Part shown: piece after piece, positions 1 to 64,000 of the stretch
Position numbering within the stretch: position 1 is the stretch's first letter
Layout of the letters: each line of letters opens with the position of its first letter
Virus record (IMG/VR): IMGVR_UViG_3300001525_000014
Span: 32,001 to 96,000 of that record
Length of the DNA: 64,000 nt
Strand: one strand, 5' to 3'
DNA from: a virus
Notes under the pieces: generated by a model
Told to the model about the DNA's origin: nothing
The model's input: the letters and a program-made list of their open reading frames with translations, nothing else
Databases searched by the model: none
Translations under genes and position numbers: made by a program

Positions 1-2282
1 CTTGTAGCCTACTTGGCGTAATATCTAAGATCCTCATCTATTCTCTACTTTTCTCTAATTGTATCAGGAGATAAGCCATGCCCATGAGGGTTTGCTGGGA
101 TTGGATCGTTCTTTGTTTTAGGCTCATATATAGGAGTAGAGCGCATCTCTTGGTAATACTTTCTAGTATATTGTTTTATTCTTCTACCATCATCAAACGC
201 ATCCATCTCGTCAAGATAGTCGTAGTATTTTGGTCGTTTCCAACCAGATGACGTGTATTGCCACTTCTCTTGATATACGCTACAGCCTGTTTTCTTATCA
301 ACAAGCTCACCTGTATCTTCGTCTTGTTCGTAGCCATACTTTTCCATAAGGCGCTCCTGTTCTTTGCGCCTATCCTGTTCATACTAGCCTTGATTATACT
401 CTGTTCTAAAATTACCAGTAGCCTTACCATCTTTATCAAACTCCATTAAAACCATTTCTGGATTTCCTGGTACAATTTTACTCATAGCCTTCCAGGCAGC
501 TCGTCTGAAGTCGTCTATTTGGTGACCGATTTTATTTACATATACTTGCCTATCGTAATCAATATCGTTAACTTTATTGTAGAGTATTCTAAGTATTGGA
601 GAACTAGACCTACCGTACATACCAGCCCACATTTCAAGCCAATTTATATCTCCATACATAGCTTGTCTTAAAAGCCAATCTTCTGCAACAATCTTTGCAT
701 TATCTATATTGCCAAGACCCATATTGTCATCTATATATTGATCAACAATATCTGTAGTTAAGGCGTGCAAGGCGTTTCTATACAACACAGCTATGTCCTG
801 CATAGACGCATTTATTTGATCTATGTGAGTCTTTAATATAGTAGGAAAGTTATCAAATACCTTAGCTGAATTTATCTGGTTTAAAACCTCTTTGAAGAAA
901 CCTATTGAGTTTCTATCTATATCTATAAGTTGTTGCGCTGTGATGCCTTTAAAATTATTCTTCCTAGCATTCTCTAAGAACTTGTATATAGAGCCATCTG
1001 TTATATTTCCATTTTGATCCATAAAACCAACACGGTCTACAACATAGTTTACAAATGTACAAATAGCATCATCATCAGACTATCTTTGCATTTTCTACAT
1101 TGTCTAGAACAATTTGTCCTAAATCTTTATCTAAGATGGGGTTTTAGACACAATGTGGTCATATGTATCAAATAAGTCCTGTAGCCTCTATATAGCCTCA
1201 TCTTTACTAAGAGTATTATCCGCCATAAGCTAGAACTTAGCTTTATTTTCAAGCCTTACTTCATTAAACTTAGCTGATACCTTAACTTGATTTATATCAA
1301 GATTAAGTAAGAATGATTGAGCTAAATATCCATGCAACATTTCTTTATTAGAGTCATCTATTATAAGATCTTTAAAAGCTTCTCTAACCTGTGTGTTAAA
1401 TTCCTCCCATATATCTGCCGCCTTTGTACGCTCAGCTATATCGTTAGCTTTACTAACAAGTATATCTACAAGTTTTTCTTCTGCCTATGTTACATCTTTT
1501 ATCTTATACTGCTCCATAATGTCAGATAGAGCCTTTTGTACCATCTAAGACTTTTGAAACATATCAAGATAATGATGACAGATCTCATGAGACTCTGTAT
1601 TAAGTTTAGCAGAGCTTCTACCAAATGCCACCTTGATAACATTACCTATAGCGCTAAGCTTATTAGATATGTACTAGCCAGAAGCTTTTGTAATATCTTT
1701 TAACGATGTATTACGTATATAATCAACAAACTGTATCTGCAAGTCTTTAGACGATAAAAGAATATTACCTTCTTTGTCTACAGACTTTGTAAGACCAAAT
1801 GATTTCTCAAGTCTATCTGCTAAAGTAGTATGCAAACGTTCGTATTCAGCCTAATTCCAGGCTTCTGTAGCCTCTCTAAGAGTCTTACCTTGCTACTACT
1901 AGTCTAGGATAAAATTATCCTTTCTAGAGTCATAATTTTGAGCCATAGAGCCAAATGATTTAGCATTAAAATGTAACGCCCCATTATAGTTGTCTAAATC
2001 ATCTATTGTAGGTTCTACTCTATCCTATGTCCAGTCATAGTGGTCTTCTATGAACTTAGATGTAAATATAGTAGCCTTCTCCAATATGGCTTTTTCTTTA
2101 CTGCCTCCATTACGCTGTAATAAATCCTTATACAGTGCGGAGTCTTTACCATTTAAATCCTTATCTAAAGGATATCCGTTGTTCTATGATAAAGCATAAT
2201 AGGCAGCCTCTCGGCTACCTAAAATGCTCTCATATTCATTTAACAACGCTTCGTTTTCTTTATTTCTTAACAAACACGTCAT
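1..2282 (-). CDS. Large virion-associated protein of unknown function. The C-terminus lies beyond the left window edge; about 760 codons are visible.
   Basis: ATG at 2282 lies 5 nt after the TAA (2288-2290) of the upstream gene. The frame matches track ORFs 384..1022 and 45..347. Hand-scanning the frame found about 19 in-frame TAG and no TAA/TGA down to position 1. It includes three consecutive TAG followed by CAA at 1893-1901. Confidence 0.75.
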
Positions 2283-2287
2283 AATAA

Positions 2288-5200
2288 TTATTTATTACAG
2301 TCGTCCTATCTTCTCTTTCCGAGTTCTTTAAGGTCGTCTTTTATTTCCTATTCATTCTTTACTTTATAATCATTTTTAGAGAACGTCTTCTAATATACAG
2401 CTTTTATTGCATTTGCAGCTTTTAGGGCTTTATCGTATCCTACATACCCTTCTCTATCAACCCACTACCCGTTCTTGTTAACTTTGTAGTTTTGAATATT
2501 TCTAGTACCAACACCAGCAAACGATTTTGTTAATATTGGTGTATCTTCAACTTCAAATTTACCTGTTGATGAATTATACTAATACCAGCTCTCTGTTTTA
2601 AGATCATATACATGTACAGGTTTACCCTGTTTGATGCCAACCTAAACAGCCATATTAGTACCACCTTCTACAGCTTTCTGCGAACTAGTTATATTCGCTA
2701 CAGCAAATACACCATCAGACTTATCTACCTAATAGAAGTCTCTTGCAAGTAATTCTCCACCAATATTATAAGGCAACTCTCTTCCAGTTAACTGCTTTAT
2801 CTACTCTCTTGCATAGTTAGATTGTTCGTGAGTAATTGGGAGAGGCTTAACGTTTTTATCCCTGAGTGTTTTAGACATATTCTGGTTATCTATAGGTCTA
2901 AAATGGTTTATTTTTGTTAAGCCAAACGTTCTACCTATAACATCCCAATAAGTATCGCCACCATAAGCTCCTCCAGAATTAATTGTGTAATCTTGTGGAT
3001 TACCCTGCTATTTGTTGTACAAAGATATAGATTTAAGATAATCCCTCAATGTGGTCATGTATCGATTTGGCTCTAATGCTTTCAATTCAAATTCATTAGC
3101 TTCATGCCAATGGTAATCGCCCCAGTCTGTTCCTGTAATAAAATATTTGCCATCTTTGTATTTAATAGCATATTTAGAAGACCCATACCTTTTGGTTATG
3201 GTATATCTTAAAACGTTATCTCCATCAATTGTGCTATTTTCAAAATCCTTTAACTTATCAGGCTTTACTGGAAATTTATCATACTCTATTTTCTACTCTG
3301 GCTCTGTTCTAGTAAACGCATTATCCTTTAATGATCCATCCTCATTATAATAATTAAGCATCTTATCAGAATTATGATGAGCATAACAATACATACAACT
3401 AGATGCACAGTTAGAATTATACTTTAGAACATCAACTTTGCCACCATAGCAGGTACAAAGTTTACGCTGTTTATTATTATCTTCACCTTTATCTTCTATA
3501 TGCGTACCAAGGATGTTATTAACCTAATCTACAGACAAGCATCCCTATTTGCTTATTCCAGGAATTACTCCAGGTTCAGCACAAGTAGATAATTTAACTC
3601 CATACTTATTTGCTATCTATAACATCTTTTCGGATACACCTTTGACTATTTCTGGTTTAGCATTAGGCTTAAACTCTCCATTAGGAAGCTTCTCATACCC
3701 ATTCTTTTCGTAGTCATAGCCTAAGTTTTTCATAAATATAGAAGTGGTGCGATAATAGTCCATTACTGAGAATTTAACGTTCTTTATTCCTAATTCGGAT
3801 GCTCGCTTAATAAGTGCTTCAACATCTTTAATCTTTGTAACACCAGGAATAATAGGATCAATTCTCAATGTAACCATCTTAGGATCAAGACCTTGCTTAA
3901 TAAACTTTCCTACACGCTCAATCATATCCTACCACTTCATAACACCAGGCTCCCACTTAGTAGCACCAAGAGTAGTTATACTAAAGTGAATAATCTTAGG
4001 CTTTTGAATACTAAGAATTCTTCTCATTGGAAGACCATCATGCTTAGTTATAATATACATAGCATCCATATCGTTAGCAGTAAGAGTGTTTCCTCTATAA
4101 TCCTTCACTGTTGTTTTACCACTAAAGAAACCCTCAAGCTGTTTAGCAAAGAAAGCCGGGTCAGTCTTTTCGGAAGCCACAGCTATTCTCGGCTATTTAT
4201 CATTACCAGTAAATGGGTGTAATGCAAGAATTTCTTCATTAGTAAGAATTGTGTTAGGAGAACTTATGGTCTTCTAAGCATGCTAGAATGATACATTGTG
4301 CGCATTCTTGTGGTCAGTACTTACATATTTAGCCAAATCAACGGTCTTGTCATATAAGTATTTAAATAGCTGAGGCGTACGTTGTTCTGTAATCTAAGAA
4401 ATCTTGCCATTAGATAAACCAGTAGAAGGTAAATATATCTTTCTGTATTTACCCGTATCCCACTCATCCTTAATAGCCTAGAATTCGGCATCTATAACCT
4501 TTTTAAACTCTTCTATATCAGAATCATTCCATCTACCAGCATCTCTCGTTCTACCAGTTAAGGGATCGTACCAATGCTGTGTAGACACAGGCATCGCGTT
4601 ATCCATTCCTCTGATTATAGCAGCTGTAGTATTGGGGAACATCTTGCCAAGTCCATATGTCCTAGCATACTTACTGTCATTACTTATCGGGTTTTTACCA
4701 GATGTCCTGTTCGTGTTGTCACCAAATACATATAATACATCAGGATTATCATTAACCTCCTATCTAGTCCAATTACCTGGATGATATTCAATCTTTCGTT
4801 CAGCTGATTTAGGTAAAGATGGATTTTCTATATCACCAGTATAAGGATTAGCTACAGGAACACTAGATATAACAATAGCGGTCTTTCTTGGTCTAGTTAG
4901 AGCTGTATAAATAAGCTCAGACTTCTCTTGATTTGATGTAGCTGATGTGCCCATTATATCCTTCTCGTCTACTACAACTATATCGTATGTAGAACCCTAA
5001 GATTTATGGGCTGTTATAGCATAACCAAAGTCAATGTCTGCATAACGTCCTTTATACTCCCAGAATTCTTGCCAAGCTTGCCTCTTTAATATTCTATTGG
5101 TCTATCTCTTAGCCTTAGAAGCAAGTTCCTATAGCTTCTGATTATATAGATCAATATCGTTTCTAGAAACAACCTATATAACACAATCTTTTTGTTCATT

Positions 5201-63285: not shown

Positions 63286-63309
63286 CTCACACATTATTTT
63301 TAAAACTTA

Positions 63310-63993
63310 TTACGCGGTAGTAGTTGTTGTAGTCTTGAGTGCTGCAATAAGAGTAGCATTCTGTCTCTACTGTGACAACTCAAGGCGAGCATCATTGTAG
63401 CGTTGCTGCAAATCAGACTGCCAGTGGTTGTTCAATACATCTACAATACGCTGAGTGTTAGCATTTGCGTTCGTCTTAAGATCGCAAGCCATCTAACTCA
63501 TCTGGAAACCAAGGTTACTTGCAGCTCTTTCCAAACCTGTGTTTGTGTAGCTGAAACCTGATTGCATCTGGTTGATAATATCCTTCTGCCCAAGTTGATT
63601 CTCGTAGCCCATCTTGATAATGTTCTATTGCGTCTGGCAGCAGCAGTTCTGCAATGCAGATGTTAAGTTTGCGTCACCAAGAGCAATTGCGTTAATTACT
63701 CTTTCTGCTGAGAAGTTTACGTTACCAGCTACCTCCTGAATGCCAGCCCTAACATTGCAGATTGCGTTATTCAAAGCATTGAAGTCGCAGTTCAAGTTAG
63801 AAGCAAGCTGAGTAATAGCGTTACCGTTACCTCTAATGGCATCCATTACCAAAGCGCTATTCTGGTTATCTGAGATCTGTGTACGCATAGCGTCAAGTTG
63901 ACCCTGGATTGCATTACCCTGATTCTCACCATTGTTGTTCCACATACGCATTGCGAAGATCATCCAGATCAAGTAAGCGAATGGGTTATTCAT
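63310..63993 (-). CDS. 227-aa protein with a hydrophobic N-terminus and an N/Q/A-rich body.
   Basis: Track ORF 63625..63993 continues past the TAG at 63625 to TAA 63310-63312. The frame is still open at the right window edge, so the true start could lie outside the window. Confidence 0.6.
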
Positions 63994-64000
63994 ATAGTCA

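Follow-up and report, generated by a model that had tools for sequence, protein, structure and literature searches.

Read with the standard bacterial code, the minus strand of a 64,000-nucleotide (nt) stretch of viral DNA (positions 32,001 to 96,000 of the IMG/VR record IMGVR_UViG_3300001525_000014; called here the window, and numbered from 1 to 64,000) falls into short open reading frames (ORFs), nearly all of which end at TAG and are followed by another ORF in the same frame. The question raised by this locus is whether these are broken genes or genes in which TAG is a sense codon and, if the latter, which amino acid it specifies, what decodes it and how far along the genome the change extends. 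The original prediction, made from the window alone, was a genome-wide reassignment of TAG from stop to sense. We find that the window is the late gene block (virion, lysis and virion RNA polymerase (RNAP) genes) of a human-gut crAss-like phage that reads TAG as glutamine (Gln). We hold it highly probable that this is the late block of a ~100-kilobase (kb) Burzaovirus-like phage in which UAG means Gln (genetic code 15) and UAA and UGA are stops, that the decoder is most likely a phage tRNA with anticodon CUA, tRNA(CUA), derived from tRNA-Gln, and that the early genes keep the standard code with TAG as a stop.

We compared stop-to-stop frames on the minus strand using all three stops (translation table 11) or TAA and TGA only. 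With TAA and TGA as sole stops the longest frames measure 18,252, 7,518, 4,695 and 4,173 nt, against a maximum of 1,542 nt under table 11, and frames longer than 600 nt total 60,779 of the 64,000 nt instead of 8,328 nt. Frames free of TAA and TGA were far shorter in shuffled sequence: over 200 shuffles the longest had a mean of 449 nt and was at most 678 nt. The longest real one (20539..2288; 20515..2288 from its first ATG) ends in TAA and holds no other TAA or TGA and exactly the 124 in-frame TAG that had been counted in the original prediction, whose stated facts all reproduce. The prediction had also suggested comparing coding density and ORF length between the two codes: counting minus-strand ORFs of at least 100 amino acids (aa), coverage rises from 33.2% (mean 154 aa) under table 11 to 98.8% (mean 594 aa) with TAG as sense, and the controls with TGA (35.9%) or TAA (44.2%) as sense give no comparable gain. 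Under the TAG-as-sense code we called 28 long genes (g01 to g28) plus four small ones (s1 to s4) lying in three apparent gaps, all on the minus strand. These 32 genes bring the coding fraction to 99.2% and contain 397 in-frame TAG, which are spread over 30 of them. TAG makes up 1.87% of codons in the called genes and 2.1 and 2.8% in the other two frames, while TAA and TGA are absent in frame and range from 1.2 to 6.5% off frame; with these densities TAG acts like any other sense codon, and stop function stays with TAA and TGA.

That TAA and TGA remain true stops had been part of the prediction and is borne out at the gene ends. The 31 complete genes stop at TAA (22) or TGA (9), in part by construction of the gene calls, and the next start is overlapped at 16 of 31 junctions, ten of these being 1- or 4-nt overlaps of the ATGA or TAATG type; the tightness of these junctions supports both codons as real stops. 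Nothing on the plus strand was convincing as a gene. Programmed frameshifting was rejected because every gene is read in a single frame, and assembly error because the TAG pattern is common to dozens of independent contigs. An intron, tRNA or riboswitch in the small spaces between genes was ruled out as well, as an Rfam scan of the window gave no RNA family and the spaces hold the four small TAG-bearing genes. The window is, as had been claimed, an intact and densely packed virion module and not a graveyard of pseudogenes.

The module carries a crAss-type major capsid protein (MCP), large terminase (TerL) and portal in conserved order, and its gene order is that of cr124_1 (NC_055899.1, Burzaovirus faecalis), which is 83.6% identical in nucleotides over 85% of window positions 40000-64000; for cr7_1 (NC_055895.1) the figures are 84.1% and 77%. 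Both phages are classified in Crassvirales, Suoliviridae, Oafivirinae, Burzaovirus, and Oafivirinae corresponds to the 'Delta group' of Yutin et al. 2021 (PMC7886860). Most structural proteins share 83-98% aa identity with those of cr124_1. The nearest contigs that we found, L004 and L010, are only 88-90% identical to the window in nucleotides, so that the window would represent a distinct species-level genome inside a known genus-level group.

As to whether homologues terminate at the TAG positions or continue across them, the refutation proposed with the original prediction, TerL, the portal and the RNAP-containing giant protein align continuously over all TAG positions, and their standard-code homologues do not end there. 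As standard-code homologues of TerL and/or portal we used those of cr10_1, ProJPt-Bp1, the cultured PhiCrAssBcn23 and FpV4; none of these genes has an in-frame TAG, and their alignments cross all TAG sites of the window with 0 stops. In TerL (g06), the match to phrog_6681 runs as one stretch from residue 24 to 659, over the TAG sites at residues 173-645, and the sites at 16 and 657 are covered by alignments with TerL homologues. Standard-code homologues of the giant gene g27 likewise have 0 TAG in 4,260-4,605 codons.

The residue at TAG was approached by codon exchange and by protein alignment. Opposite the TAG codons of the window, cr124_1 has TAG (126), CAG (48) and CAA (31), the next codon being GAA (10), and in the reciprocal comparison cr124_1 TAG faces CAA (48) and CAG (39) in the window. 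Against relatives with 88% identity, the TAG codons of g27 pair with TAG 61, CAG 30 and CAA 15 times, and with any other codon at most twice. Because CAA lies two substitutions away from TAG and the single-step neighbours TAT/TAC, AAG, GAG, TTG and TGG are rare in these exchanges, the exchange is synonymous and does not reflect mutational proximity. Gln is also the commonest residue opposite TAG in protein alignments (34/121, 28%, against a background of 4.4%, in a count that includes the TAG-recoded cr115_1), and in the g27 homologues it reaches 11.4% opposite TAG and 14.7% opposite CAA/CAG over a background of 3.5% (P=1.6e-8). When all 20 amino acids are scored with BLOSUM62 at 76 TAG sites (mean score, standard-code homologues only), Q comes out on top (+0.44; E -0.01, K -0.14) and takes first place in 1,998 of 2,000 bootstraps. 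On these comparative grounds TAG corresponds to Gln (genetic code 15), an amino acid that the prediction had not named and the residue found by proteomics at TAG sites in two crAss-like phages (Peters et al. 2022, PMC9523058).

The decoder was sought in the window and in its relatives. The prediction had placed the decoding machinery elsewhere, and indeed no tRNA, tmRNA (transfer-messenger RNA) or other Rfam family occurs inside the window. This is expected, because in relatives the locus of tRNA(CUA) corresponds to a point ~2-3 kb past window position 64000. In cr124_1 this tRNA is found at 47896-47967 (ARAGORN; Rfam tRNA, 55.6 bits; labelled tRNA-Gln in RefSeq), 2.9 kb upstream of the g02 orthologue, and in L010, the closest relative that includes the region, a tRNA-Met(CAU)/tRNA(CUA) pair lies 3.8 kb upstream of that gene; the sequence of L004, which reaches ~3 kb upstream of g01, shows no tRNA. 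ARAGORN finds a tRNA(CUA) in 13 of 19 close relatives (L010 included), in each case 3-4 kb upstream of the orthologue of g02. It overlooks a divergent tRNA(CUA)-like gene in another three (L011 at 4190-4270, L012 and L014), whose anticodon loop is CCCUAAA (C33) and whose T-loop, ATGGACA, is non-canonical. We built a pattern from the D-arm and T-arm of the cr124_1 tRNA(CUA), without anticodon information, and scanned bacterial genomes with it: of 80 tRNAs matched, 76 were tRNA-Gln (CUG or UUG), which shows that the relatives' tRNA(CUA) has a tRNA-Gln body. The only match in a cellular genome with a CUA anticodon on this body is in L118 (JAJWOH010000001.1, 'MAG: Segatella copri', a metagenome-assembled genome (MAG) contig of 101,563 nt). 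L118 matches cr124_1 (44-49 kb) with 87% identity and is therefore the genome of a Burzaovirus-like phage that was sorted into a Segatella copri MAG; this binning gives a weak hint of Segatella copri as host and is not evidence of a suppressor-bearing bacterium.

The same locus holds other tRNA-like genes. Between tRNA-Met and tRNA(CUA), L018 (5945-6019), L024 (6966-7038), L025 (7107-7180) and L027 (6475-6547) have copies with anticodon loops (UUAAAG or UUUAAAGA) of 6 or 8 nt instead of 7, to which ARAGORN assigns 2- or 4-base 'anticodons', and a second type with loop GCAACAG is present in L015 and L023. An extra tRNA of cr124_1 at 47678-47751 (+) was found by Rfam and missed by ARAGORN.

The 'genome-wide' extent given in the original prediction is not supported: the window covers the late block only, and the early genes of the closest complete genome look different. 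The 41 opposite-strand early/replication coding sequences (CDS) of cr124_1 contain 14 in-frame TAG in 7,628 codons (0.18%, against 1.87% in the window), while genes of its late strand block have dozens each. Seven annotated CDS account for eight of the 14, all at the very 3' end (codons 495/518, 139/162, 164/165, 96/96, 82/83, 191-192/210 and 50/57), as expected if these CDS truly stop at TAG and the TAG-as-sense annotation overshoots to the next TAA or TGA. The L010 ORFs that flank the tRNA have 0 TAG as well, and TAG-bearing genes start ~1.4 kb downstream. Going by cr124_1, recoding would be confined to the late block, in line with the report that TAG-to-Gln occurs mostly in late genes of Delta-group phages (Yutin et al. 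2021, PMC7886860) and that standard-code replication genes face a code-15 late block (Borges et al. 2021, bioRxiv 10.1101/2021.08.26.457843).

These observations suggest how the block might be expressed. The genes for early functions and replication, which lie outside the window on the opposite strand, would be read by the host machinery with TAG still a stop. The phage-encoded amber-suppressor tRNA(CUA), derived from tRNA-Gln and placed beside tRNA-Met at the head of the same transcription direction as in relatives, is presumably carried by this phage too; it would be charged by the host glutaminyl-tRNA synthetase and accumulate. Because early genes use TAG as a stop and late genes contain it, late genes would be fully translatable only after the suppressor has accumulated, and late expression may be delayed or gated in this way. 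The giant gene sets the scale of the read-through needed: with 124 TAG, 99% read-through per codon gives 29% full-length product and 95% gives 0.2%, so that UAG termination would have to be almost abolished late in infection.

The use of TAG differs strongly from gene to gene. Overall, Gln is written as TAG in 387 cases (37%), CAA in 392 and CAG in 268, and the TAG share of Gln codons goes from 0/18 in the MCP gene g10, 0/11 in g15 and 4/36 in g09 to 52/101 in g18, 7/13 (54%) in g19, 15/20 in g04 and 7/8 in g03. The pattern recurs in 58 recoded relatives, whose loci are kin, so that their TAG counts are not independent events: TAG accounts for 6/935 Gln codons in the MCP (97% CAG) and 11/365 in g15, both of which write Gln almost always as CAG, and for 50%, 41% and 35% in g19, g16 and g13. 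This suggests strong selection at the level of translation against TAG in the virion proteins made in greatest quantity (g10, g15), and we regard TAG as an expensive way to write Gln that is eliminated from genes with the highest expression. In ~105-kb crAss-like phages, TAG is preferentially used in lysis genes (amidase, spanin) and the tail tube gene (Borges et al., bioRxiv 10.1101/2021.08.26.457843).

How firmly the proposed scheme stands depends on the alternatives and on several facts that weigh against it. A decayed phage region full of nonsense-ridden pseudogenes would account for the 33% coverage and the fragmented TerL, portal and RNAP protein under table 11, and it is effectively refuted by the 397 in-frame TAG against 0 TAA and 0 TGA, by a TAG pattern shared with dozens of independent metagenomic relatives, and by the fact that about half of the TAG sites are kept as TAG in 84-88%-identical relatives while the rest swap with Gln codons. 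Mass-spectrometric proof of Gln at TAG comes from other crAss-like phages and not from this one, and one may ask whether TAG stands for Glu, Lys, Tyr, Leu, Ser, Trp or pyrrolysine; in the BLOSUM62 ranking E and K come next after Q, and ARAGORN calls every CUA anticodon tRNA-Pyl. That label is only a default, for which reason pyrrolysine was rejected, and another residue is hardly credible given an exchange with CAG/CAA ~10-fold above any single-step neighbour (TAT/TAC, AAG, GAG, TTG, TCG, TGG), the bootstrap result, the tRNA-Gln body and the proteomics of related phages (PMC9523058). A reassignment valid in all genes, early ones included, and throughout infection is improbable for the reasons given above, although all 32 window genes fit code 15 and 30 have TAG, the Delta-group phage Eld241-t0_s_1 needed TAG as Gln throughout (Yutin et al., PMC7886860), TAG as a stop in early genes is inferred from the annotation of a single relative, cr124_1, and one early CDS of that genome (44749-45219), the only such case, has six dispersed TAG. 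Somewhat less probable still, and in our view quite unlikely, is that the host supplies the read-through, by a suppressor tRNA or weak release factor 1 (RF1) activity. The window itself has no tRNA, the presence of tRNA(CUA) in this phage being inferred from relatives, and L013, L023 and L028 keep only a degenerate tRNA remnant and yet have 10-22 TAG per late gene, so that a phage-borne tRNA(CUA) at this locus is not universal in the lineage; Yutin et al. (PMC7886860) also noted an imperfect match of recoding and suppressor presence, for which they offer host tRNAs as one explanation. On the other hand, 16 of the 19 close relatives, among them the two closest, have tRNA(CUA) or its divergent copy at the locus, the sole cellular match is the binned phage contig L118, and early genes appear to stop at TAG, which a constitutively suppressing host would prevent. 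Phage-encoded suppression also faces a quantitative difficulty. The 124-TAG ORF requires at least ~99% read-through per codon, a level that classical amber suppression does not come near, and among 43 early-region proteins of cr124_1 no member of a release-factor or aminoacyl-tRNA-synthetase family was recognised; the mechanism is for these reasons incomplete.

The purpose of the recoding is a separate matter. Instead of serving as a timing device, most TAG codons may have arisen neutrally, through AT-biased C-to-T mutation that turns CAG into TAG and that could be tolerated as soon as there was a suppressor tRNA, with selection only clearing them from highly expressed genes. The guanine-plus-cytosine (GC) content of 36%, an in-frame TAG density close to that of the other frames, the even distribution of the 124 TAG along g27 and a TAG share that falls as expected abundance rises (MCP and g15, as above, against 38-51% in low-copy giant proteins) all fit, and we regard this as a serious possibility that falls short of being the likelier account. 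It has to face the statistically preferential use of TAG in amidase, spanin and tail tube genes found by Borges et al., the TAG richness of spanin-like g19 here and across relatives, and the avoidance of TAG in early genes, which fits gating; drift and timing are not mutually exclusive. We would further offer, as a speculation that we consider rather doubtful, that the lineage encodes some activity, so far unrecognised, by which host RF1 is removed or outcompeted, and that the TAG share of each gene (0% in capsid, 50-88% in lysis and fibre genes) is a dial for dosage or timing; nothing within the window points to an RF1-removing factor.

The early region of cr124_1 also contains a permuted tmRNA at 34448-34683 (-) (Rfam RF04321; 63.3 bits, gathering score 47), with the tag peptide GNVNNIVDYTNVA according to ARAGORN and without mention in Yutin et al. 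2021 (PMC7886860). It might belong to the same adaptation and be relevant where UAG read-through makes non-stop ribosomes.

The genes of the window and the domains of g27 are listed in Table 1. Pfam gave no match for TerL or portal, both of which were matched by PHROGs.

Table 1. Genes called in the window with TAG as a sense codon, and features of the giant gene g27. Positions are those of the window; domain positions of g27 are given in the direction of translation.
Feature	Position	Strand	Length (aa)	In-frame TAG	Description
g01	63310..63999	-		3	Orthologue of cr124_1 gp36 (annotated outer capsid protein/viral fiber), 90% aa identity, aligned from residue 45; phrog_16490; 5' end past window edge
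g02	62743..63246	-	167	1	Stop TGA
g03	62289..62774	-	161	7 of 8 Gln codons	Highest TAG share of the window; L004 orthologue with Pfam DUF7841
g04	60108..62210	-	700	15 of 20 Gln codons	Variable fibre-like protein; 26% identity to cr124_1 gp33
s1	59786..60106	-	106	3	Between fibre-like gene and putative small terminase; HESIH (HExxH-like) motif
g05	59277..59786	-	169	1	Adjoins terL on its upstream side, where crAss-like phages have their putative small terminase (gene 86/TerS; PMC7886860)
g06	57208..59271	-	687	10	Large terminase TerL; phrog_6681, E=7e-145
g07	54733..57204	-	823	17	Portal protein; phrog_6547, E=5e-162, one stretch, residues 6-810
g08	52712..54733	-	673	12	60% aa identity to cr124_1
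s2	52371..52715	-	114	3	Lysine-rich
g09	51088..52293	-	401	4 of 36 Gln codons	Acidic/Gln-rich; scaffold-like position upstream of MCP
g10	49534..51069	-	511	0 (16 CAG, 2 CAA)	MCP; Pfam Crass_capsid, E=6e-210; sole long table-11 ORF of the window
g11	48702..49454	-	250	4	
g12	47961..48686	-	241	1	
g13	47215..47964	-	249	9	
g14	46520..47215	-	231	3	
g15	45311..46441	-	376	0 (all 11 Gln codons CAG)	Virion protein, role unassigned
g16	44333..45250	-	305	3	
g17	40155..44321	-	1,388	16	Orthologue of cr124_1 gp20 (91% aa identity)
g18	32665..40158	-	2,497	52	Orthologue of cr124_1 gp19 (83% aa identity over 2,506 columns)
s3	32243..32668	-	141	1	Orthologue of cr124_1 gp18 ('putative transpeptidase', 141 aa); stops at 108 aa under table 11
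s4	31956..32246	-	96	3	Hydrophobic, putative holin-like protein
g19	31355..32005	-	216	7 of 13 Gln codons	N-terminal membrane anchor; putative spanin-like protein
g20	30657..31358	-	233	2	
g21	30212..30682	-	156	2	
g22	29374..30237	-	287	7	
g23	24708..29384	-	1,558	35	Orthologue of cr124_1 gp13 ('virion structural protein')
g24	23914..24717	-	267	7	Glycine-zipper protein
g25	22326..23930	-	534	11	
g26	20521..22323	-	600	15	
g27	2288..20515	-	6,075	124	Giant ORF
g27, virion-RNAP-homologous region	14581..6374	-			aa ~1979-4714; homologous to cr124_1 gp01 and to proteins of 4,260-4,605 aa in relatives
g27, DFDID catalytic motif	8749..8735	-			aa 3923; motif match
g27, SF1 (superfamily 1) helicase domains AAA_30/UvrD_C_2	6250..4868	-			aa 4756-5216; Pfam
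g27, DUF7831	4777..4349	-			Pfam
g27, DUF1848	4132..3380	-			Pfam
g28	3..2282	-	at least 760	19	Continues past left window edge

The giant protein g27 is predicted to contain a crAss virion-RNAP region, on the basis of homology and of a DFDID match to the DFDxD catalytic motif as defined for this enzyme in bioRxiv 10.1101/2020.03.07.982082; its ~2,000 N-terminal residues gave no family match. It is the longest member of its family that we observed, the recoded relatives having 5,630-5,675 aa and the standard-code relatives 4,260-4,605 aa. Its identity with cr124_1 is just 29% in aa, against 83-98% for the flanking structural genes, and cr124_1 has several ORFs where the window has one of 6,075 aa. 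Megablast of window positions 1-21000 against the phage collection gave no match, and the relatives of the giant gene came from a protein-guided search. The C-terminal architecture of the protein differs between close relatives: a ~400-aa DUF1848 segment (aa 5423-5829, window 3029-4246, -) that is in frame in g27 is missing from the L161 orthologue and split by a frame change in L162. As the segment carries 6 TAG, recent import from a standard-code source can be discounted.

Variation is also seen elsewhere in the block. Two genes, g04 (26% aa identity) and g08 (60%), diverge from cr124_1 far more than their neighbours (85-98%), and among close relatives the g04 orthologue ranges from 700 to 1,495 aa; the divergence of the pair is consistent with a swappable receptor-binding module. 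The TerL of the window is intein-free, and many near-identical TerL of relatives (P0007, P0010-P0020) measure 1,062 aa instead of 687 and have the intein/LAGLIDADG Pfam domains PF14528 and PF14890; Yutin et al. 2021 (PMC7886860) had already described inteins in the TerL of Delta-group phages. Homologues of this TerL number thousands in public metagenomes, so that the lineage must be common; the best 120 are 92-98% identical (687 aa), and many of them sit on contigs of ~101-105 kb. The GC content of the window is 36.1%.

The arrangement can be placed among known systems. In E. coli, supE is a tRNA-Gln with anticodon CUA that inserts Gln at UAG, and its suppression is partial, competing with RF1. 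The tRNA(CUA) of the relatives shares with supE the tRNA-Gln body and the CUA anticodon and differs in being encoded by a virus and serving one gene block, in which ORFs with 52-124 TAG demand near-complete read-through. The closest parallels are cr124_1 and cr7_1 themselves, which have the same gene order, in-frame TAG pattern and TAG-free MCP, a late block headed by a tRNA(CUA), and RefSeq CDS already called through TAG; the window differs from them as a separate species-level genome with divergent g04 and g08 and a single 6,075-aa giant ORF. The prediction had noted that recoding occurs in some crAss-like phages, and this agrees with the literature (PMC7886860, PMC9523058). The code-15 crAss-like phages of Peters et al. 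(PMC9523058) and Borges et al. (bioRxiv 10.1101/2021.08.26.457843) resemble the window in having TAG as Gln in late structural and lysis genes, with TAG-rich lysis genes, and they have a phage-encoded suppressor tRNA and standard-code replication genes; metaproteomic proof exists for phages of that group, whereas the recoding described here is known from sequence. The same logic of late-gene stop recoding, suppressor tRNAs and standard-code hosts is found in TAG-recoded Lak megaphages and in TGA-to-Trp (code 4) phages (Agate, Jade, and some Zeta and Beta crAss-like phages), the last with another codon and amino acid. Jade phages have a recognisable 'code change module' of tRNA, tryptophanyl-tRNA synthetase and RF1, while cr124_1 is without a recognisable release factor or synthetase. 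The late-gene recoding of TAG to Gln is correct and important for annotation, and it is already known: the lineage has been published with this code and its nearest RefSeq genomes are annotated through TAG, so the finding is not new.

Its practical consequence is that under the default bacterial code two thirds of the window looks non-coding or broken, with TerL, portal, tail genes and the 6,075-aa RNAP protein fragmented, and that annotation, taxonomy and host-range inference must apply code 15 to the late block and the standard code to the early one. Biologically, the window adds a further species-level case to what has been published for the family most abundant among human-gut crAss-like phages and leaves current knowledge as it was; its TAG-free capsid gene and 124-TAG giant gene bear on how read-through works and on whether the use of TAG reflects regulation or drift.

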